DNA from: an uncultured Chloroflexia bacterium
GTDB lineage: Bacteria; Chloroflexota; Anaerolineae; Aggregatilineales; Aggregatilineaceae
Direction of reading: 5' to 3'
Assembly: GCA_963753545.1 (NCBI GenBank)
Contig: CAVWCQ010000008.1
Coordinates: 300,645-364,644, forward strand
DNA length: 64,000 nucleotides
Shown here: piece after piece, positions 6,668 to 56,423 of the stretch
How positions within the stretch are numbered: the first letter of the stretch is position 1
Layout: each line of letters starts with the position of its first letter
Program-made: the position numbers and the translations under genes
The notes under the pieces: generated by a model
Told to the model about the DNA's origin: nothing
Databases searched by the model: none
What the model saw: the letters and a program-made list of their open reading frames with translations, nothing else

Positions 6668-6728
6668 CTCTCTCTGCTTTTCTCCGCGCTCTTTGCGCTC
6701 TCCGCGGTGAAATTTTCTTGTTCTTTTG
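6668..6728 (-). repeat. REP1 copy (reverse orientation, extended)
   Basis: CTCTCTGCTTTTCTCCGCGCTCTTTGCGCTCTCCGCGGTGAAATTTTCTTGTTCTTTTGC. Confidence 0.7.
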
Positions 6729-6876
6729 CCGCTGCTGCTCTCAGCACCAGTAGCACATCCGCCGCGCCTGATCATCCAGCGTGACCATCGCATCATAATA
6801 TGCCTGCCGCAGATCGTCGGCGGACTGAAATGAAAAGGGGCGCACTGCTGCGCCCCCAACTATTCGACAAAGGTAG

Positions 6877-10552: not shown

Positions 10553-10590
10553 CTTTTCTCTTGATTTCTTTGCGCTCTTTGCGTTCTTTG
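10553..10590 (-). repeat. REP1 copy (reverse orientation), abutting MITE-like element copy 1
   Basis: TTTTCTCTTGATTTCTTTGCGCTCTTTGCGTTCTTTG. Confidence 0.65.
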
Positions 10591-10762
10591 TAGATCATCG
10601 AAAGTCGTGCAATGAACAGTGTTTTCCCCTTCCCCCGCGGCTGCGAAGCAAGCAAGCTGTGGGGGAAGGGTGGCTGAACATGCTTTTCCGTTCAGCCGGG
10701 ATGAGGGCCTGCCCGCGATCCGCAACGCTCATTCATCTCACAAAATTGCATTACTTTCATTG
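10591..10762 (+). repeat. MITE-like structured repeat, copy 1 (~175 bp, imperfect CAATGAA termini)
   Basis: Near-identical to the reverse complement of 36573..36748. Internal hairpins CCCCTTCCCCC...GGGGGAAGGG and GGCTGAAC...GTTCAGCC. The track ORF N-terminus MGEGWLNMLFRSAGMRACPRS... is a translation artefact of this element. Confidence 0.7.
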
Positions 10763-10816
10763 TTTTACTTTTGCGGTGATATTTTGTGTTCTTGTTTTCC
10801 GAACCAGGAAGGCATT

Positions 10817-11741
10817 TATGTCCGTCTACGAGGTCGTAAACCTGACCAAGATATATCCAAAGGCGGCTGTTCCGGCGAACGACGGGATCAATCTGACGGT
10901 CGAAGAGGGCGAAATCTTCGGCCTGCTGGGGGATAACGGCGCAGGCAAAACGACGCTGGTACGGCAGTTGGCGAATCTGCTGGCCCCAACGAGCGGTACG
11001 ATCCGCCTGTTTGGACAGGAACTAACGGCTTCACCCCTCTATTCGCCGGGGCAAATCGGCTATATGCCCCAAAACGGTATGGCTCTCAACAACCTCACGG
11101 TGGGCGAAACGCTCTATTTTACGGCACATTTACGCGGATTGTCCCGGCAGGATGCCCGCGCCGAACGGGATCGCCTGCTCGATCTACTCGACCTGGGCAC
11201 CGTGCGGGATCGCATGGCTCCGCGCATCAGCGGCGGTCAGCGGCGGCTGGCTCTGCTGGCGGCGACGATGGCGGCCTCTCCGTCTGTGCTGCTGCTCGAC
11301 GAACCGACCAACGATCTCGATCCGCAGCACCGCCGCCTCGTCTGGGATGTGGTACGGCAGGCCAACCAGCAGCGCGGCATCACGATTATCCTGGTAACGC
11401 ACAACGTCATCGAAGCGGAACGGGCGATTGGGCGGGTCGGAATTATGCGCGCCGGGCGGCTGATCGCGCTGGGACGTCCGGGAGCACTCAAAGCCGAATT
11501 GAACAAGCAGCTTCGCCTGGAAATTGTGTTTCCGCCGGGCAGCCCGCCCACCTTGCCGGAGGGTGCCGCGCCACGCACCGTCGCGCCAGGGCGCTGGCAG
11601 CTTTTGATCAACCGGGCCGACGCGCCGCTGTACCTGAACGCGCTGAACGGGACCAGCACCGTTGAGGACTTTACCCTGAGCACCGCTACGCTGGAAGATT
11701 TGGTTCTCTCGCTGGCTGAACCGGGAGCCGAAACACGATGA
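10817..11741 (+). CDS. ABC transporter ATP-binding protein
   Basis: Walker A GDNGAGKTT, signature SGGQRR, Walker B LLLDEPTNDLD. The track ORF 5' extension covers a repeat element. Confidence 0.85.
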
Positions 11742-12497
11742 ACCGCCACCACCAACCGTTTGCCGTCCAACTATTGAACCTGACGCTGATCCAGCTTGCC
11801 AACTGGCGCTGGTCGTGGCGGGGAATGTTGATCACGGCAGTTGTCGCGCCCGTGCTGACTACTCTCGGCCTGAGCGCGTTTGTTGCCCACAGTGACACCG
11901 AGACGCTGGCTTACATCCTGTCCGGCAATCTCGTCATGTCGCTGTTGTTCGGCACGCTGAATAATGTGGCGGGGCATTTTTCCTATATGCGCATTGTCGG
12001 ACGTATGGATTTTTTCGCCACGCTGCCCATTTACCGCGTGACTCTGATCATCGCCACCGTGTTCGCTTTTCTGGTTCTGGCTCTGCCATCCACGATCGTT
12101 GAGTCTCATCCTCGGCGCTCTGATCCTGCACCTCGATCTGCACATCAGCCCGCTGATCCTGCTGGTGATTCCCCTGACCGGAATGGCCCTCAGCGCGGTC
12201 GGGGCGATTATCGGGCTGGTGATGCGCACGCCGGAAGAGGTCGGGGCGGTCAGCACGCTGCTCACTTTCCTGCTGGTCGGCTTCGGCCCGGTGCTCGTCC
12301 CGCCGGATCGCCTGCCGGGACCTGTCGAGCAGATCAGTCTGATTTCCCCGGCGACCTATGCCGCGTCTGCCCTGCGCCAGACGCTGCTCGGCATGCCGGA
12401 TCGGATTCCGCTGGGCATCGATCTGATCGTGTTGGCGGCGGTGCTGGCCGGATCGTTGTGGATCGCCGGGATGAAGATGGACTGGCGGCAGAGTTAG
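11738..12497 (+). CDS. ABC-2 type transporter permease with an apparent frameshift near 12100
   Basis: Hydrophobic N-terminal half in one frame and the C-terminal TM half (12099..12497) in another. Start overlaps the ATPase gene stop. Confidence 0.6.
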
Positions 12498-12816
12498 GTT
12501 CGAAGTCAGTTAGAGGGTCTTGTGCTCTTAGAACATCCGTGCTAAAATAGTATTGTGATCACTGTATCCTTTCTCTGCTTTTCTTTTGAGGGTCAGGGCG
12601 TAGGTTAAGAAATGGTTAGGGAGACCCCTCAAAAAATAGTATGCCGAGGATCGCCACGAGAAGAAATGGTCAAGAAGTGATCAACTAGCCAATTTCTTCG
12701 GCTGACTCGGTTCCGGGATTTCTATTAAGATGTTTATGAAAGGCCCGCAAATACAACAAAAATCGAGCCTAAATGATCAAAAAAACCGTCTAGTTGAATT
12801 TTGCAGCCCGTCTTTT

Positions 12817-24341: not shown

Positions 24342-24486
24342 TCCCTCAGATAGACGCATAAAAACAGTGTAGCGGGAACGAAAGTTATCCGCTGGGCGCT
24401 TGCCTGCCGCCTGCCTGATTTTGCTGCTGAGAATAAAGCACGGATGTGCTACAATTGGGGGCATCCGAGCAAAGAGAGAGCGATGT

Positions 24487-26383
24487 ATGAGCGACTATAT
24501 ACCCAGCGCACATATCCAGGACATCTTACAAAACCTTCCGGCGTCACCCGGCGTGTACCAGATGATCGATCCCAACGGCATGATCATCTACGTGGGCAAG
24601 GCGAAGAGCCTGCGCAACCGCGTGCGGAGCTACTTCCAGCCGAGCAACTATGACTCGAAAGTGCTGCGGCTGCGGGCCGAAGTGGCCGATATCCAGTTTT
24701 TGCTGACCGGGGATGAACTGAAGGCGCTGATCACCGAAGCGGAGTTGATTCGCGTCCACAAGCCGCGCTTCAACATTCTGCTGAAGGATGACAAACATTA
24801 CCCGTATATCCGCGTGCGGACGGGCGATCCGTTCCCAACGGTTGAAATGACGCGGCGTTTGGAACGCGGCGACGGTCACCGCTACTTTGGGCCGTTCACC
24901 TCGGCGGGGGGTGTGCGCGAGACGCTGGATGTGCTGCGCAAGGCGTTCCCCTATCTGACCTGTGATCGCGAGATCACCGGGAAGGATGCTCGCGCCTGCC
25001 TCTATTACGATATCAAACTGTGCGGCGCGCCGTGCATCGGGGCGCAAACGCGCGATGAATACTGGGCCGGGATTACCGGGCTGATGCGCGTGCTGGCGGG
25101 CCATGCCGACGAGGTGCTGGCGGATCTGCGTGGGGCGATGGAAGCCGCTTCGGAAAATCTGGACTTTGAGAAGGCGGCGCTGCTGCGGGATCGGATTCGC
25201 GTCGTGGCGCAGATTTCGGCCCGGCAGCGGTTGGTGCGCTGATTTTGAAGCGAACCAGGACGTGATCGCCTTCGCGCAGGAGGGCAGCGACGCCGTCGTG
25301 CAGATGTTCCTGATCCGCAATGGCAGACTGGTTGGCAGCGAATATTTCGCCCTGTCCGGCGCGGAAGACGAAACCGCCGACGAGATTATCGAACACTTCC
25401 TGACGCAGTTTTACCAGGAGGCCACCGACATCCCGCCGGAAGTGGTCGTGCCGAACGATCTGATCGAGACGAAGATCATCGAGCAGTGGCTGCGGGATCG
25501 GCGCGGCGGCAAAAAGGTCAAACTGGTCGTGCCCCAGCGCGGCAACAAGCGCGAACTGGTCCAGTTAGCGGCTCAGACTGCCTCGGAGAAACTGAATATT
25601 CTGCGGGCGCAGTGGGCCAGCGATACCGTCAAACAGGAAGCCGCGCTGAGCGAAATCCAGGAGGCGCTCAGTCTGCCGACGCCGCCCAACCGGATCGAGT
25701 GCTACGACATCAGCACGACGCAGGGCACGGCGATTGTCGCCAGCCGGGTTGTGTTTGTGCAGGGTGTGCCCAAAAAGGGCGAATACCGCCGCTTCAACAT
25801 CCAGACGGTGGCTCACGAAGGATCGGACGATTACCAGTCGATGCGGGAGGCGCTGACGCGGCGTTTCCGGCGCTATACGGATGCGGTCAACGCCGAACAG
25901 GCCCCACTGCCGCCCGGCAAAGAGGATCACGAGGAAACGTGGCGGGTGCTGCCTGATCTGCTCATTGTGGACGGCGGCAAGGGGCAGTTGGGCGTGGCGG
26001 TGGAAGTGCTGCAAAGTTTCGATCTGTTTGGGCGCGTACCTGTGTGCGGCCTCGCCAAACAGTTCGAGGAACTCTACCTGCCCAACGATCCCAAACCCGT
26101 TATTCTGCCGCGCCGCAGCGAGGGGTTGTTCCTGCTGCAACGGGTGCGGGACGAGGCGCACCGCTTCGCGATCACGGCCCATCGTGCCCGCCGCGCCAAA
26201 GCAGGACTTGCCAGCCAACTGGAACAGGTACCCGGCATCGGCCCGGCCCGGCGCAAAGCCCTGCTGAGGGCATTCAACAAGGATATCGAAGCGATTCGCG
26301 CCGCCAGCATCGACCAATTGATCACCGTGCCGGGTATCACGCGGGAGATCGCGGAGAATATCAAGGCGACATTGGGGGGCTAG
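24487..26383 (+). CDS. uvrC: excinuclease ABC subunit C with an apparent frameshift near 25238
   Basis: GIY-YIG N-terminus (GVYQMIDPNGMIIYVGKAKSLRNRV). UvrC C-terminal RNase H-like and HhH regions are in the second frame (25103..26383). Confidence 0.85.
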
Positions 26384-27716: not shown

Positions 27717-29311
27717 TGAAACGCAAGCACCAAATGACCTCCGGCGAACGTGAGGAACCAAGCCTCAATCCATTCCGCCTGATGGTTGCCCTGTCGGCCA
27801 TCTTCTTTTTGTGTTTCCTGCTCTACGCGCTGCTTGAACCGTATCTGCCCGCTGATCTGACGCACGAAAACAAGCCCCGTGTCGAGATTGTGCCCTATGC
27901 GACACCAACAGATGCTGTTGCGATTGAGCCGATCATCCCGACGGAAGTGCCTGTTGTTATTCCAAGCGATGTGCCGCCCCTGCCTACCGAGACGCCAGTG
28001 CCTGTCCTGGTCATGAACGGGCGCATGATGATCACCCTGGAAACGGCTTCCTACGTGGCGGAGTTGGCCGATCTGCGCGGCATTAGCAACGAGATCAGCA
28101 GCGTGACCTTTAGTTCCGACGGGACGTATCTGGCATCGGGCAGCCGAGACGGAACGGTCCGGTTGTGGGACGTGGCAAGCCGAACGGAACTTCAAACGTT
28201 CCGCAGCAGCGGTGACTGGGTTGAGAGCGTTGCTTTCAGTTCGAGCGGTTTCCAACTGGCGGCTGCCGGGCAGGATAACATTGTGCGCAGTTGGAATCTG
28301 GTGACGAACCAGGAACTACCCGCGCTGCAAGGTCCACAAGGGGCTTTGCGGAGCATCAGCTTTAACCCGAGGGGCACGGTTCTGGCGGCGGCGAGTGATG
28401 ACGGCAATGTGTATTTGTGGGATGTGCAAAGCGGCGACCAGATAGCCTCTCTGCGCGGGCATACGGGCTTTGTGACGAGCATCGCCTACAGCGCGGATGG
28501 AACGCTGCTGGCGTCGGGCGGCGAGGATGATACGGTGCGGCTGTGGGACCCGGCATCCTATGCACTGCTGGCTACGCTGAATGGGCACAGCGCGGATGTA
28601 ACGAGCGTCGCCTTCAGCCCTGACGGGACACTGCTCGTTTCAAGCGATTCCAGCGGTGTGGCGATTGTCTGGGATGTAGCGGCGCGCAGCCAGCTTTCGA
28701 AGCTGGTCGGGGACTCCGAGCAGATCAGCGATGTCGCGTTTGGCGGACTAAGCCGTATGGTGGCGACCTCCGCCAAGGGGATCACTGACAACACCGTGCG
28801 GTTGTGGAACGCCGAGACGGGCGAGCTGGTGCGCGTGATCGAACTCGATGGCCCGGCGAATAGCATTGCCTTCAATCCCGATGGAACGCTGCTGGCTATT
28901 GGCGGCGGCAGTTATCTAACCCTGTGGAGCGTCAGTTCGCAGGCCCCGGCGGCAGCCGCCCCGGAGAGCTTAGGGCCAGAGAACTTCCCAACGGCTGGCC
29001 CGGAAGTGTCGGATGAAGTGCCGCAGACAGCCGATGGGCAGGGCGGATTTGACGCATCGAGTGGATTTACGGGATCCGTCAATCAAACGTGCACGCTGAC
29101 CAGCGAGTATCCCGACGTGAATGTTCGTACCGGGCCGGGCGAAGACTTTGATGTCGCGCGCGCGCTGGAGCTGGGTGATACCGTTCAGGCGAACGGCTGG
29201 ACACTCGTCACGACGGGCACATGGTGGCGACTTACCGATGGAAACTGGGTGTGGGCCGGAGTTGTGTCGGAGACGGACGGCTGCAACCAGATGCCCGCTG
29301 TCGAGCCGTAA
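27717..29311 (+). CDS. WD40-repeat protein with N-terminal TM anchor
   Basis: Multiple WD40 blades (VRLWD, VYLWD, VRSWN). Confidence 0.8.
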
Positions 29312-29597
29312 AATAATCTAATTGGCTCGAAAATGTAACAAAAGTGCCCATTTTGGCCCGTTCTGATCCATTACGGGCCATTTTTGATCATTTAGTGGTT
29401 TCCAATTAGCCGGAAATTCTTATAAGTTACTCACTTCCGGGCCATTTCTTCTCGTGGCGATCTGCGTACCCCCCTAAAAAACGGCACGGTGACTAACCGT
29501 TTCCTAACCTTGTTCTCGCCTGGAAAGAACAAATGCCGTTTCAGCCGGAGGCGCAAAAACCGCACAACGCGATTTTCCGAGGAGCTATCCTTGTTTA

Positions 29598-29678
29598 CAG
29601 GATAGCACAGATTTTCCCTAAAATACTCCCTTAAGGTTGAACCTTAAGTACGAATTTGGAGATGGACGTCTTTGAAAT
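29598..29678 (+). repeat. left copy of a ~85-bp inverted repeat (partner at 30630..30712)
   Basis: ACAGGATAGCACA...AATACTCCCTTAAGGTTGAACCTTAAGTAC...TTTGGAGATGGACGTCTTTGAAAT matches the reverse complement of 30630..30712 with few mismatches. Confidence 0.7.
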
Positions 29679-29697
29679 TACCTTCGCTGACCGTCCT

Positions 29698-29892
29698 CTA
29701 GTAGACCTTATATTCCGGATGCATGCCGTCGAACCGCTCGCGTCGAACATCGCCCAGTTCCTGGTCAAACCGCCGGAGATATTCGCCCAGAGGTTCCTTC
29801 TCAAGTTTTGCTTTTCGCATCGCGATCAGAAGCTCTTTAACCAGGATCTCCAACTCGTTTACATGTTTTTGGGAAACGGTTTCAAGGTTCAT
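29698..29892 (-). CDS. small hypothetical protein (64 aa). Coding strand is ambiguous, because a fully overlapping plus-strand ORF 29656..29895 starts inside the left inverted repeat.
   Basis: Charged helical peptide. Lies between the csp terminator and the left IR. Confidence 0.2.
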   Translation of the reverse strand: MNLETVSQKHVNELEILVKELLIAMRKAKLEKEPLGEYLRRFDQELGDVRRERFDGMHPEYKVY

Positions 29893-29935
29893 TGATCCCT
29901 ACCTTTTCTGGTTTACTCACAAGCACTCGTCGAAC

Positions 29936-29977
29936 TGCAAAAAAGAAAAATGCCCTGGATCAAATTGATGCAGGGCA
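29936..29977 (-). terminator. intrinsic terminator of csp
   Basis: Hairpin GCCCTGCATCAATTTGATCCAGGGC followed by a T-tract on the minus strand, ~35 nt after the csp stop. Confidence 0.65.
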
Positions 29978-30008
29978 TCGATGCTAGCTTGCGCTGCAGG
30001 CTGCGCGT

Positions 30009-30227
30009 TTAGTTGTTCGCGCGCATCACGTTGGTGGCCTGGGGACCTTTTTGGCCCTGAGTGACGATGAAAGTAACCCGCTCGCCCTCAGCCAGTTCAC
30101 GGTAGCCATCACCCTGGATTTCGCTGTGATGCACGAATACATCCGGGCCGCCTTCGCGTTCGATGAATCCAAAGCCCTTCTGGGCGTTAAACCACTTCAC
30201 AGTACCGCTCGTACGTTCTTCAGTCAT
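30009..30227 (-). CDS. csp: cold-shock protein (CspA family)
   Basis: [40 protein letters not shown]1/RNP2 motifs. 72 aa. Confidence 0.9.
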
Positions 30228-30629
30228 TTGGAAAATTCCTTTCCCACTAAAATTGGCTTGATGTCGTGGGAATGGAGTCACTTGGGGATAAAAAATACAG
30301 CGCGTTGATTGAGTTGCGCTGGAATTTGATACCACTTGTGCAAACAACCTTTTCCACCACAAACACTATTATACATCATATCTTCTAAACCGTCGAATTT
30401 ATGTGTTAGTGAAGCGTTTCTCACACGCCTCATATCTCAAGACTTTCATTCGTGTTTTAGTGTTGCTGACGGAAAATCAGGCACGACCACGCCGCAGATA
30501 GCCCCTATCCCCGACCCTTTCCCCGTGCATGCTGCGCGGCTTAGCTGCGCACGCATGCGTGGAGAAAGGGAGACGCGTTCCTCTCTCCACGCAGTGGGGA
30601 GAGGTTAGGAGAGGGGCCGCTTTTGATCA

Positions 30630-30712
30630 TTTTAAAGACGTCCATCTCCAAAATAGTACTTAAGGTTCAACTTTAAAGGAGTATTGTTCGTCGAACATTT
30701 GTGCTATACTGG
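30630..30712 (-). promoter_or_regulatory. right inverted-repeat copy. Probable csp promoter and 5' leader start.
   Basis: Lies ~400 nt upstream of csp on the minus strand. Cold-shock genes carry long 5' UTRs. Sequence identical in inverted orientation to 29598..29678. Confidence 0.45.
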
Positions 30713-31109
30713 TTGTAGGCTCGTGCTGTCCTTTCTGCCAGCGTCCCTCATGTAAGAACGCCGATCCGGTAGAGAAGCGGTTAGAAAACAGTTTGGGGAC
30801 ATGCCAAAAAATTATGATTTTGAAGATCGCTACGCGGAGAAGTGATCAACTAATTTTTTGCAAAAGTTAGAATTTGCAAAAAGGGGCTTTGTAGTACATA
30901 TACTTATAGGGAACCGCGCAAACTTCTGTTATTTCATCGTTTACCTGTTACGCTCCCAAGTTAGGGGGCCGACAGGTGAATGTCAGGTGGATTTCAGGCA
31001 AACGTCTTGAGTTTTTTCCAGAGCGAGCTACTATTGACTTCTAAAGACCCTGTGTTACAGGGTATAGTTGGCCGCTCAAAACAGAGGCCACAAAAAGGAG
31101 TGGGCTGCT

Positions 31110-34965: not shown

Positions 34966-35007
34966 GGCGCGACGGCTTAGCTTCGCACGCTTGCAGCGCC
35001 CGTACAA
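34966..35007 (+). repeat. REP2 hairpin-CTACAA-type element
   Basis: GCGCGACGGCTTAGCTTCGCACGCTTGCAGCGCCCGTACAAC. Confidence 0.55.
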
Positions 35008-35035
35008 CTTTTGTTGCCTACAAGAACGAGGACGC

Positions 35036-36450
35036 ATGACGGATACACAATCGACTTCCGATCCGCTGGATGGGCAGCATGTGGTCGTGCTGGGATTCGC
35101 ACGGCAGGGCAAGGCACTCGCCCGCTGGCTGCCTACCATTGGCGCGCAGGTGACGGTCTCGGATACACGAAGCACGGCGGCGCTGGCCTCAGAACTGGGC
35201 GAATTTGCCGGGCTTCCTGTCCAGTTCGCGCTGGGCGGGCACCCGCTGGAACTTTTGGACGGCTGCGATCTACTCTGTGTGAGCGGGGGCGTTCCGCTGA
35301 CGCTGCCGATCATCCAGGAGGCGTTCCAACGCGGGATTCCGGTGACCAATGACGCGCAGTTATTCCTGGAACGCTGTCCCGCGCCTGTACTGGGCATCAC
35401 CGGGAGCGCGGGCAAAACGACAACCACAACGCTAGTCGGGGCGATGTGCCGGGCATCCGGGCGGCGGACGTTTGTCGGTGGCAATATTGGCGATGTGCTG
35501 CTCGACATGCTGCCGCAGATCGGCGGGCAGGATATCGTCGTCATGGAACTGAGCAGCTTCCAGTTGGAACTGATGACGGTCAGCCCGGATGTATGCGCCG
35601 TGTTGAATGTGACGCCGAATCACCTGGATCGACATGGCACGATGGATGCCTACAGCGCGGCGAAGGCCCAGATTTATCTGCACCAGACGCCGAGCGACGT
35701 GGCGATCTTTGGCTATGATGATCCCGTTGCTGAGCGGATGAGTCATGAAGCGCCGGGCGAGTCGCCTATTTTTCGCTGCATTCCGCTGTGCCGTCGGGCG
35801 CATATCTCAAGGGGCAGGAACTCGTCGTGGTGGGCGATAGTTCGCCAGGGGCGGAGTGGCGGACGATCTGCCCCCGGGATGAAATCCGGCTGCGAGGCGA
35901 GCACAACGTGGCGAATGTGTTAGCCGCTTGCGCTGTCGCCGGGGCGGGGAGCATCTCACCGGAAGCGATGCGCCGCGCGATAGGTTCCTTTACGGGAGTC
36001 GAGCACCGCCAGGAACTGGTGGCAACGATCAACGGCGTGACATGGGTGAATGACAGCATCGCCACCGCGCCGGAGCGAGTCGTTGCTGCGCTACGCAGTT
36101 ACAGCGAACCGCAGGTGCTGCTGGTCGGCGGGCGCGACAAAAACCTGCCCTGGGAGGAGATGGCCGATCTGGCTGTGACCCGCTGCCGGGCGGTGATCGG
36201 GTTTGGCGAATATGGGGCCAGGGCTATCGAGCATATCGAACAGGCGAGGGAGCGGGCGGCGGGATCGATGGTGGAGCAGGTGCATGTGGTGGATACGCTG
36301 GACGAGGCCGTGCAGCAGGCTTCTGCAATCGCCCAGCCCGGCGACGTGGTGCTGCTCAGCCCAGGCGGAACGTCGTATGATGCGTACCAGGATTTCGCGG
36401 CGCGGGGGCAGCATTTCCGGGATCTGGTGCACGGGCTGGCAGCCGGGTAA
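35036..36450 (+). CDS. murD: UDP-N-acetylmuramoylalanine--D-glutamate ligase with an apparent frameshift near 35780
   Basis: N-terminal GKxVVVLGxxRQG, Mur ligase GITGSAGKTTTT. The C-terminal domain continues in the second frame (35788..36450). Confidence 0.8.
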
Positions 36451-36568
36451 AGAAAAGCAAGAGAAATAAAAGAAAAAGCAGATTTCACCGCGGAGAGCGC
36501 GGAGGGCGCGGAGAAAAGCAAGAGAAGTAAAAGAAAAAGCAGATTTCAGCGCGGAGAGCGCGGAAGTA
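36450..36568 (+). repeat. two tandem REP1 copies after murD
   Basis: AAAGCAAGAGAAATAAAAGAAAAAGCAGATTTCACCGCGGAGAGCGCGGAGGGCGCGGAG followed by AAAAGCAAGAGAAGTAAAAGAAAAAGCAGATTTCAGCGCGGAGAGCGCGGAAG. Confidence 0.75.
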
Positions 36569-36572
36569 GGAC

Positions 36573-36748
36573 AATGAAAGTAATGCAATTTTGTGAGATG
36601 AATGAGCGTTGCGGATCGCGGGCAGGCCCTCATCCCGGCTGAACGGAAAAGCATGTTCAGCCACCCTTCCCCCACAGCTTGGCTTGCTTCGCAAGCACGC
36701 GGGGGGAAGGGGAAAACACTGTTCATTGCACGACTTTCGATGATCTAC
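36573..36748 (-). repeat. MITE-like structured repeat, copy 2 (inverted relative to copy 1)
   Basis: Reverse complement of 10591..10762. Produces the same artefactual peptide (track ORF 36091..36726). Confidence 0.7.
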
Positions 36749-37048
36749 AGAGAAAGGCAAATATCACTGCGGAGAACCGTAGCTTTGCTTAAGAGGAGAG
36801 CAAAAATGCCGCTTTTTGGACATCCCAACGTGGACAAGTTAAAAGCCTATCATGACGGCTTATTATGAGCGCGACCTCGATGGTGTCACCACCTTAAAAT
36901 TGTTTTCGTAGCGAAGGCGGGGTCTGGCGAAGAACGGAACACAAGCGATACAATCTGCGGAGGCGTATGGCTGGCTGTACGCCAGGGGTTGGCACTCTTA
37001 ACTGCGGAACTGACGCGCGCCGCGACCAAGACTGGGAAAGGATCGGGT

Positions 37049-38681: not shown

Positions 38682-39720
38682 GCTGTACCCCACCCTTACC
38701 TTGTCATTTGTTGGCGCGCGCGGCGATATGGCGCGGGATCTAGTCCAGCGCGCTGATGTATCGTTCGATTCCTATCATGAAGTGCTGGCGGGACCGCTGC
38801 ATGGTGTGCCGCGTCTGCGCCAACTGATCAGTTCGTTCAAGATTCTGGCCGGGGTGATCCAGTCGCTGATCCTGGTGATCCGCTATCGCCCGGAAGTGTT
38901 ATTCCTGACGGGCGGCTGGGTCGGTTTTCCGATGGCGGTGGCCTGCTGGCTGACGCGGCGGCCCATCGTGATTTATGTGCCCGACATTGAGCCGGGGTTG
39001 ACGCTGCGCCTGTTGGGGCGCTATTTCGCACGGACTATCGCGGCGACGGTGGCGCAAACGAAAGACTTCTTCCCCGGCAAAACCGTCGTGGAAACTGGCT
39101 ACCCGCTGCGCGCCGAAATCCTGAGCGCGAACCGGGAGCAGGCGATCAAGGCGCTGAACCTGAATCCAGCGCGGCGCACGCTGCTCGTTTTTGGCGGCAG
39201 CAAAGGATCGCGCAGCATCAATACAACCATGAGCCAGATCGCGCCGCTGCTTCTGGCGGAGGATCTGCAAATCCTGCACATTTCCGGCAAGCTGGATTGG
39301 CCGCAGGTGCAGGCGCAGTACGAGACGTTGACAGAGGCGCAGAAACAGCGGTACCAGGTCTTTTCATTCCTGCCGGATATCGGGCAGGCGTTCGCTGCCG
39401 CCGATCTGGTGATCAGCCGGGCAGGGGCGGCGACGCTGGCGGAATATCCGCAGTTTGGACTGCCGTCGATCCTGGTGCCGTATCCCTGGACATGGCGCTA
39501 CCAGAAGGTGAATGCCGATTGGCTGGTCGAGCGCGGCGCGGCAGTGCGGTTGGATGATGACCGGTTGGGTGACGAGCTTCTGCCGACAATTCAGGCGCTG
39601 CTGAACGATCCGGGACGGTTGGAGCGGATGCGGGCAGCCGCCGAGTCGCTGCGGCGATCTGATGGCGCGGAAAATATCGCGCGGGTGCTGGCCGATGTGG
39701 CGGGACATCCGGGCGGGTAG
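38605..39720 (+). CDS. murG: undecaprenyldiphospho-muramoylpentapeptide beta-N-acetylglucosaminyltransferase
   Basis: RIVISAGGTGGGVYPALAV N-terminus. GT28 C-terminal domain (GGSKGSRSIN...RAGAATLAE). GTG start chosen, overlapping the ftsW 3' end. Confidence 0.85.
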   Translation: MRIVISAGGTGGGVYPALAVAGALRKLYPTLTLSFVGARGDMARDLVQRADVSFDSYHEVLAGPLHGVPRLRQLISSFKILAGVIQSLILVIRYRPEVLFLTGGWVGFPMAVACWLTRRPIVIYVPDIEPGLTLRLLGRYFARTIAATVAQTKDFFPGKTVVETGYPLRAEILSANREQAIKALNLNPARRTLLVFGGSKGSRSINTTMSQIAPLLLAEDLQILHISGKLDWPQVQAQYETLTEAQKQRYQVFSFLPDIGQAFAAADLVISRAGAATLAEYPQFGLPSILVPYPWTWRYQKVNADWLVERGAAVRLDDDRLGDELLPTIQALLNDPGRLERMRAAAESLRRSDGAENIARVLADVAGHPGG

Positions 39721-39785
39721 AGAAAGAAAAAATATTTCACCGCAAAGAGCGCGGCTTCGCTAGGAAAAGCAAGAGAAGAACAAGA
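39721..39785 (+). repeat. REP1 copy after murG
   Basis: AAATATTTCACCGCAAAGAGCGCGGCTTCGCTAGGAAAAGCAAGAGAAGAACAAG. Confidence 0.7.
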
Positions 39786-43786: not shown

Positions 43787-44723
43787 GGTACTGGTGCGGG
43801 AGCAGCCGATGAATGAACTTTATGCCCCGCTGGCGGATCGCTTTGGGGCGGCGCTGCGGCGGAACGATCCCCTGGCGCGTTATACGGTGGCGCGGTTGGG
43901 TGGTCCTGCCGATGCGCTGCTGATCGCCGGATCGATGCCTGACCTGACGCATGCCATCAAACTGGCCCATGAGTATCACATCCCCTGGATCATTCTGGGC
44001 GGCGGCGCGAATGTGCTGATCGCGGATAAAGGCTATCGCGGGCTGGTGATTGTCAACCATACGCGAGCGGTGCGTCTGAACGATGACGGGACGCTGGTCG
44101 CGGAGAGCGGCGCAAATCTGACCACCGTCGCCCGGCGCTGCATGAGTCAGGGCTGGGCTGGGCTGGAATGGGCCGTTAACGTGCCAGGGACGGTTGGCGG
44201 GGCGGTAATCAACAACGCGGGCGCGCACGGCGGCGAAATGTCGCAGTCGCTGCTGTCGGCGGAACTGCTCGAACTGGGCGAAAAGGCGGGGATCGCGCTG
44301 TGGCCCGTTGAAAAAATGGCATACGCTTACCGTTATTCGGCGCTGAAGGGACAGCATGGGCGCTATGTCGTGCTCTCGGCGCAGCTTCGGCTCGAACCGG
44401 GGCACGATCCGGCAGCCCTCAACGAAAAGGCCGACGGATACATCGCGCACCGCAAGCGCACGCAGCCGCCGGGAGCCAGCCTGGGCAGCATCTTCAAGAA
44501 TCCGCCGGGGGATTACGCGGGCCGACTGCTCGAGGCTGCCGGGCTGAAGGGGCAGTCGATTGGCGGCGTGCTGATCTCGCCCGTCCATGCCAATTTCTTC
44601 ATCAACACGGGGCACGGCACGGCGCATGACTATTTCGCGCTGATCCAGTTGGCGCGGGAGACGGTCGAGGAGAAATTCGGCGTCCGGCTGGAGTTGGAGA
44701 TCGAGACGCTGGGCGAGTGGTGA
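43785..44723 (+). CDS. murB: UDP-N-acetylenolpyruvoylglucosamine reductase
   Basis: FAD-binding PCMH domain ([17 protein letters not shown]). C-terminal MurB domain ([11 protein letters not shown]). Confidence 0.9.
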
Positions 44724-44812
44724 AAAGAAAAAGCAAAGAAATTTCACCGCGGAGAGCGCAGAGAACGCAGAGAAAAGCAAAAGAGAGTAAAGAGAAAAAA
44801 GAATTTCATCAA
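44723..44812 (+). repeat. REP1 copy (extended) after murB
   Basis: GAAAAGAAAAAGCAAAGAAATTTCACCGCGGAGAGCGCAGAGAACGCAGAGAAAAGCAAAAGAGAGTAAAGAGAAAAAAG. Confidence 0.7.
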
Positions 44813-56310: not shown

Positions 56311-56423
56311 CCCCTCATCCCGTCTGAACTTCGTTCTGCCACCCTTCTCCCACGCAAGGCATGCTTGCGTCACTTCGTTGCGGCGCATGCACCGGGGAGA
56401 AGGGAGAATCGAACTCTTCTGTT

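Follow-up and report, generated by a model that had tools for sequence, protein, structure and literature searches.

The cold-shock gene csp of this uncultured bacterium is bracketed by an inverted repeat. Comparisons within the window (the whole 64-kb stretch of DNA analysed) indicate that each arm is the csp-proximal head of one copy of a ~270-330-nt non-coding intergenic repeat, and that the two copies face in opposite directions. The most probable account, to which we give a probability of about 60%, is that two old and diverged MITE-like copies stand inverted around csp and a second gene, orf64, and that their heads are alike through sequence exchange or a recent local copy. The repeat appears to represent a new, lineage-restricted, MITE-like and putatively mobile family in a repeat-rich bacterium. 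The result is mainly a correction: the inverted repeat at csp, for which a duplicated cold-inducible promoter had been among the proposals, seems to be a pair of copies of a dispersed intergenic repeat not described before. Moreover, the arms offer a clean example of old inverted copies that have diverged around a short core of high similarity, and are thereby a candidate for gene conversion. The features of the locus are collected in Table 1.

Table 1. Features of the csp locus and of the third repeat copy, in window coordinates
Feature	Position	Strand	Basis and remarks
Family member C3	12498-~12790	+	Convergent intergenic region after ABC-2 permease gene; lacks the 57-nt head common to L and R
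CGTGCTAAAAT, C3 version of outward -10-like motif	12538-12548	+	Reading of sequence
TTTTGATCATTT at distal edge of C3	12771-12782	-	Exact match search of window
Family member L	~29372-29697	- (head to tail)	nhmmer family profile 29679-29372; begins just after orf64 stop
TTTTGATCATTT at distal edge of L	29382-29393	+	Within 19-nt GGGCCATTTTTGATCATTT, 89% identical to 30614-30632
Left arm	29598-29678	.	Copy L: its head plus outer 24 nt; repeat search, BLASTN
TGTGCTATCCT, L version of outward -10-like motif	29609-29599	-	Reading of sequence
orf64, conserved 64-aa two-helix protein, no assigned function	29698-29892	-	Homologues, coding signature, AlphaFold
Intrinsic terminator after csp	29938-29978	-	9-bp GC-rich stem, then TTTTTCTTTTTT; -17.3 kcal/mol
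csp, 72 aa, CSD domain	30009-30227	-	PF00313, E=1.6e-29
csp leader	30228-~30361	-	Roughly 135 nt, after promoter
Likely csp promoter TCGACG-17-TATAAT	30368-30396	-	Promoter scan 10/12; conserved in orthologue loci
GC-rich, strongly self-complementary element	30495-30625	.	~130 nt, adjoins right arm; dG -76 kcal/mol, z=-5.5 on both strands
Family member R	~30614-30887	+ (head to tail)	nhmmer profile 30628-30887; points away from csp, towards Band7/SPFH gene
TTTTGATCATTT at proximal edge of R	30621-30632	+	Orientation relative to element opposite to L and C3
Right arm	30629-30711	.	Head of repeat copy R; repeat search, BLASTN
TGTGCTATACT, outward extended -10-like motif in R	30700-30710	+	Reading of sequence; within block common to the three copies

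A repeat search of the window returned two arms of 57 nt (29622-29678 and 30629-30685) that are 91% complementary and spaced 950 nt apart. With sensitive BLASTN the match extends to 29598-29678 versus 30711-30629, where 70 of 83 positions are identical with one 2-nt gap (E=5e-20). The inverted repeat that the first-pass annotation had placed at 29598-29678 and 30630-30712 is therefore confirmed. Its description as having few mismatches was generous, since, besides the 2-nt gap, the arms differ by 11 substitutions; these differences cluster in the outermost 26 nt, and the longest perfect identity between the arms is 19 nt. Owing to this divergence of 16%, which consists mostly of substitutions, a fold-back assembly artefact is unlikely. 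The core 19-mers of the arms occur at just these two sites in the 64-kb window, for a chance expectation of ~0, and no further copy of the arm was detected in the window with up to three mismatches allowed. The segment is also lower in GC than its surroundings, as had been remarked, with values of 0.40-0.53 over 29300-31100 against 0.60-0.65 in the flanking genes.

The arms continue outwards into a dispersed family, which has at least one further member in this genome. The whole-window repeat search pairs 12649-12686, within the third copy (C3), with 29425-29462 in the left outer flank (38 nt at 87%). When the intergenic region 12498-12816 was used as a single-sequence nhmmer query, it matched the left outer flank at 29528-29325 (E=6.7e-9) as well as the right arm and its outer flank at 30679-30851 (E=2.9e-7). 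Direct similarity between the outer flanks of the left (L) and right (R) copies was not significant in local alignment (12/500 shuffles) and was marginal as a colinear global score (2/500 shuffles); their relationship is thus established only through C3. Identity varies strongly along the copies. In the head, defined as the inner 57 nt, it reaches 91% for L-R, with ~40% for L-C3 and ~42% for R-C3. The outer part of the arm is 72%, 56%, and 68% identical for the same three pairs, and the body is 50-56% identical in all of them. Blocks common to the family are GAACATnnGTGCTAwAmT, GTCCTTTCT, GGTTAGnAAAnGGTTAG, GATCGCCACGAGAAGAAATGG, and AAGTGATCAACT. The distal end of L additionally holds the terminator of a convergent WD40 gene.

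The family members are non-coding, as no ORF is common to L, R, and C3. Their bodies show no excess RNA stability (z -0.1, +0.6, and -1.25), and the consensus fold of the three sequences is weak at -7.6 kcal/mol. Rfam 15 gave no match in the window at gathering threshold, and at E<=10 nothing overlaps the conserved core of the arms; sub-threshold matches at chance level (E 0.31 and 1.1) lie on the GC-rich element and clip the first bases of the right arm. A structured RNA, such as an sRNA family, was considered for the repeat body and rejected, with no support from Rfam, single-strand folds or the consensus fold.

The edges of the copies bear on their descent. Across the 64 kb there are exactly three occurrences of the 12-mer TTTTGATCATTT against 0.32 expected, all of them at the edge of a family member, and its placement in opposite relative orientation resembles a terminal inverted repeat. 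From this 12-19-nt edge motif and its inverted orientation, the family is probably MITE-like in descent, and it would derive from a MITE-like mobile or duplicative element. The presence within 64 kb of three scattered copies, each short (<600 bp) and non-coding, is in keeping with such an origin. Each copy has one good terminal motif, and the repeat search shows no consistent terminal inverted repeat. At the inferred edges, which are uncertain, no matching short direct repeats were read as a target-site duplication, and no transposase was present among the ten neighbouring proteins scanned. A partner transposase of a MITE-like family would have ends beginning GGGCCnnTTTTGATCATTT. Among the three alternatives of the first-pass annotation, a MITE-like cassette comes nearest to the evidence, given that the arms are part of a dispersed family represented again at 12.5 kb. 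At least two further families of dispersed repeats are present in the window, and the genome is thus repeat-rich.

Dispersed intergenic repeats of this kind are familiar from other bacteria, including Correia/NEMIS in Neisseria, ERIC/IRU in enterobacteria, and RUP in pneumococcus. They often lie right after a stop codon, and their hairpins and promoter-like motifs may read into neighbouring genes. The csp-flanking family resembles Correia, ERIC, and RUP in its size of ~300 nt, its multi-copy, non-coding, and intergenic nature, its inverted edge motifs, and its hairpins and promoter-like motifs. However, it differs from them in its imperfect terminal repeats with one good end per copy, in the absence of a detected target-site duplication and of a partner transposase among the ten neighbours, and in copies that are only ~50% identical. 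The arrangement also recalls MITE- or IS-flanked composites, since two inverted copies bracket a cargo of csp and orf64 that is lower in GC than the surroundings and whose pairing is not syntenic with csp orthologues. Unlike in such composites, there is no sign that csp-orf64 has moved, the outer ends show no duplication, and they are poorly conserved. No relevant literature on MITE-flanked csp genes was found.

Two close strains, L001 (99% identical) and L002 (~97%), have a left arm arranged as in the window; in L002, 35 extra nt are inserted between this arm and the orf64 stop. The left arm of L002 has two states that are otherwise seen in the right arm of the window. Just 2 substitutions separate L002 from the window over 29598-30008, and orf64 is free of them even at synonymous sites. 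By contrast, the 87 nt immediately beyond the arm contain 10 substitutions, and 38 nt at the 3' end of csp contain 3. The arm itself differs by 1 substitution against 10 in the adjacent body. As the conserved tract covers the synonymous sites of orf64, it points to a recombination tract rather than to selection on the arm. The right side of the locus varies between strains. L001 is unalignable right of ~30470 (53 nt compared), those 53 nt are without a match elsewhere in the window, and the right arm is read from the assembly of the window alone.

In the favoured account of two diverged MITE-like copies, the 57-nt heads would have been kept or made alike through exchange between the inverted copies at their spacing of 1 kb, by gene conversion or by template switching, or alternatively would stem from a recent local copy. 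Concerted evolution of closely spaced inverted repeats is a near parallel, as it likewise leaves a short, near-identical core in diverged copies at a distance of 1 kb, and the two right-arm states in the left arm of L002 fit it. The difference is that no event of conversion was seen directly here, and two copies and three strains cannot separate conversion from selection. Purifying selection on the heads would explain the jump from 91% to ~50% identity equally well. A paired function of the heads is considered less likely than sequence exchange or a recent local copy.

In public collections, the arm 19-mer yielded 3 chance matches only among GTDB genomes, and the arm 18-mer yielded 32 matches in JGI metagenomes, none of them extending past the 18-mer. 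The arm gave nothing in viral contigs and no match in plasmids and phages. Likewise, the repeat family was not found in the loci of relatives, GTDB genomes, JGI metagenomes, viral contigs, plasmids or phages, a set of collections that does not include the source genome.

Each copy might instead be an outward-facing module, in which a weak terminator hairpin is followed by an extended -10 promoter. In L, the module would end the orf64 transcript and start an RNA of ~115 nt stopping at 29500-29476, and in R it would drive the Band7/SPFH gene. This proposal draws on the best-conserved block in all three copies, GAACATnnGTGCTAwAmT, which reads TRTGnTAnnnT, and on the terminator scan, which lists the left hairpin (8 pairs, 3 of them GC) with its GGAGTATTTT tail and also, at 29500-29486 (minus strand), another terminator. 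However, the promoter scan calls none of the outward -10-like sites of L, R, and C3, the downstream terminator has no conserved counterpart in R or C3, and the bodies lack a structural signal and evolve fast between strains. Moreover, the hairpin is weak in L and lost in R. The left-arm palindrome CTTAAGGTTGAACCTTAAG (29630-29648) is perfect over 19 nt and extends to 37 nt at 78%, whereas that of the right arm (30659-30677) is degraded by two uncompensated changes, and the RNA hairpin energy falls from -8.5 kcal/mol to -2.6/0 kcal/mol. By comparison, the csp and WD40 terminators reach -15 to -17 kcal/mol. An outward module is therefore unlikely. The failure of R to maintain the head hairpin also speaks against a hairpin or symmetric operator being under selection. 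Additionally, readings of the palindrome as integron attC, dif/Xer, hix/gix, CIRCE/HAIR or a LexA box were considered and dropped, as its sequence and spacing seem not to match them.

It is quite unlikely that the heads work as a pair, whether by 37-nt palindromes that bind a looping or insulating dimer, or by extended 5'-3' pairing within one transcript, with processing or stabilisation of the resulting RNA duplex (e.g. by RNase III). The high identity of the heads (91%) against ~50% in the bodies, the 37-nt palindrome with its perfect 19-nt centre in the left arm, and the low substitution count of the arm relative to the adjacent body in L002 could all be read in this way, and the inter-arm duplex predicted for an RNA containing both arms would reach -90 to -98 kcal/mol. 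Nevertheless, the right-arm palindrome has decayed, the promoter scan of the csp strand gives nothing upstream of the right arm, and the intrinsic terminator between csp and orf64 makes a single transcript with both arms doubtful. Furthermore, the inclusion of orf64 synonymous sites in the conserved L002 tract speaks for recombination and not selection, and no regulator gene was seen among the neighbours. The wider notion that selection holds the heads alike, with the copies acting jointly on the cold-shock unit as composite-cassette ends or as paired sites, has a correspondingly small chance of being right. As composite-cassette ends, the copies would mobilise csp and orf64 between genomes as a MITE-flanked unit; as paired sites, the heads would bind protein or pair as RNA, and would insulate or process the csp-orf64 transcripts. 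If the heads did act as a pair, in cassette mobilisation or in insulation of the cold-shock unit, the finding would matter more.

The first-pass annotation had proposed that both arms are copies of a cold-inducible csp promoter and leader, with the right arm at their start and the left arm firing rightwards to give an antisense RNA convergent with csp and a small ORF. This is highly improbable, because the promoter and leader of csp are located elsewhere, and they are conserved also at loci where the arm is absent. TCGACG-17-TATAAT is the sole good sigma-70 match on the csp strand in the promoter scan. The csp loci of related bacteria (orthologues L016-L022, protein >=90% identical) can be aligned to the window between 30408 and 30012, and their multiple alignment shows a conserved promoter (TTCGAC/TTGGAC-17-TGTATAAT), a conserved leader start (TTGTnGTGGAAAAGGTTGTTnGCA), and a conserved hairpin over the SD region. 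The arm is absent next to the csp orthologues L016-L023, and in the window the right arm lies ~230 nt upstream of the csp -35, beyond the GC-rich hairpin element. Given this distance and the position of the promoter and leader, the arms are not the promoter or leader of csp. The csp gene resembles the cspA-type leader/thermoregulator (RF01766) in its ~135-nt leader, conserved 5' block, and SD-region hairpin; the arms, however, lie outside this leader, and the Rfam match (29947-30323) is weak at 24.5 bits, below the gathering score of 78. Between the arms, the minus strand carries two independent units, namely csp with its own promoter, leader, and terminator, and then orf64.

The proposed left promoter fares no better. 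The letters of TTTACA-19-TAAAAT are present next to and inside the left arm, at 29594-29599 and 29619-29624, but the reading as a promoter is not supported. The 19-nt spacer is outside the 16-18 nt range, and the promoter scan therefore omits the pair; the "-35" is not covered by the repeat and differs from strain to strain, with TTTACA in the window, TGTATA in L001, and TATACA in L002. ORFs starting MEMDVF are open in both arms, as had been observed and as a duplicated leader might suggest, yet this common peptide start follows trivially from the shared arm nucleotides. The small ORF at 29656-29895 on the plus strand exists, but its ATG is abutted by GGAG without spacing, which makes a poor ribosome-binding site. 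It is the antisense of orf64, a real gene with a clear coding signature, and the antisense frame contains 1-6 stops in 4 of the 7 homologue loci examined (L007, L011, L076, and L077).

The orf64 gene lies on the minus strand, downstream of csp and the csp terminator. Its 12 homologues (53-63% identity) are all exactly 64 aa long and share the invariant motifs MNLET, RKAKL, and RRERFD, and a profile search retrieved 93 cluster representatives. Pairwise differences at codon positions 1, 2, and 3 are 0.25, 0.21, and 0.55. The AlphaFold model is a helical hairpin (pLDDT 87.6). There was no match in Pfam and NCBIfam, and the model found only non-significant uL29-like shapes in the PDB (E>1), from which no functional assignment follows. 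The conserved two-helix family is of modest value as a by-product of the analysis. The arm is absent next to the orf64 homologues L003-L012 and L076-L078, and no analogous inverted-repeat architecture exists in the orf64-homologue and csp-orthologue loci.

An inverton, in which the arms serve as recombination sites for flipping the 950-bp csp-orf64 piece, is barely credible even though inverted repeats flank a promoter-containing segment, because the promoter and the genes are all inside the segment and a flip would not switch expression, no recombinase is present among the ten neighbouring proteins scanned, the left junction is oriented in L001 and L002 as it is in the window, and perfect arm identity stops at 19 nt. 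As for the gene pair itself, csp with orf64 is not syntenic with the csp orthologues, and an orf64-type gene adjoins csp in two unrelated genomes. The neighbourhood of the locus is core chromosome, with uvrC, PBP2, murD, and ftsW.

The small gene downstream of the cold-shock gene csp belongs to a family of its own, for which no model was found in Pfam or NCBIfam. Its members carry the motifs MNLET...RKAKL...RRERFD, and a profile search gathered 93 cluster representatives, nearly all of them exactly 64 aa in length. The family gene adjoins csp in the window and likewise, with the opposite gene order, at the locus L011; in six other contexts, csp is not adjacent to it. A second csp gene, the paralogue P0022, is recorded elsewhere on the same 4.18-Mb contig, outside the window; it shares 89% identity with the window csp.

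Features located in the window and, for one family member, at the locus L011
Feature	Position	Strand or arrangement	Description
64-aa gene (orf64)	29698-29892	(-)	conserved two-helix protein
orf64 family member	L011:905-1099		
GC-rich element	30495-30625		~130 nt, strongly self-complementary; between csp promoter region and right arm
Second dispersed repeat	10584-10775; 36559-36754	inverted pair	~190 nt
Third repeat family	73-109; 2530-2566; 6675-6739; 36463-36607 (tandem); 39716-39770; 44722-44805	both orientations	
uvrC	24400-26383		apparently split gene
murD	34991-36450		apparently split gene
ABC-2 permease	11738-12550		apparently split gene

The strain represented by the locus L001 is 99% identical to the window, yet its positions 1-53 diverge completely from ~30470-30525, immediately upstream of where the csp promoter lies; on the side of the right arm, this points to a rearrangement or an insertion at the strain level. 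In a second close strain, a 35-nt insertion/deletion (L002:352-386) separates the stop codon of orf64 from the left arm (window 29697/29698); a 6-nt direct repeat, AGGACG, marks its borders, and it looks like a slippage-type event.

The GC-rich element beside the right arm folds with a dG of -76 kcal/mol (z -5.5), and hairpins at 36661-36727, 10608-10671, and 56339-56418 are weakly similar to it. Additionally, two further families of dispersed repeats occur in the window. The copies of the second repeat, 26 kb apart and 97-98% identical, contain the hairpin CCCCTTCCCCC...GGGGGAAGGG and gave no Rfam match at the gathering threshold. Members of the third family share the core ATTTCACCGCGGAGAGCGCGGAG...; at least six copies lie in intergenic DNA.

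Three genes, uvrC, murD, and the ABC-2 permease gene, each apparently comprise two overlapping ORFs in differing frames. Such splits suggest that the assembly contains erroneous indels (or that these are pseudogenes). Where the aligned repeats differ by a single-base indel, as at 29614, the difference should not be over-read.
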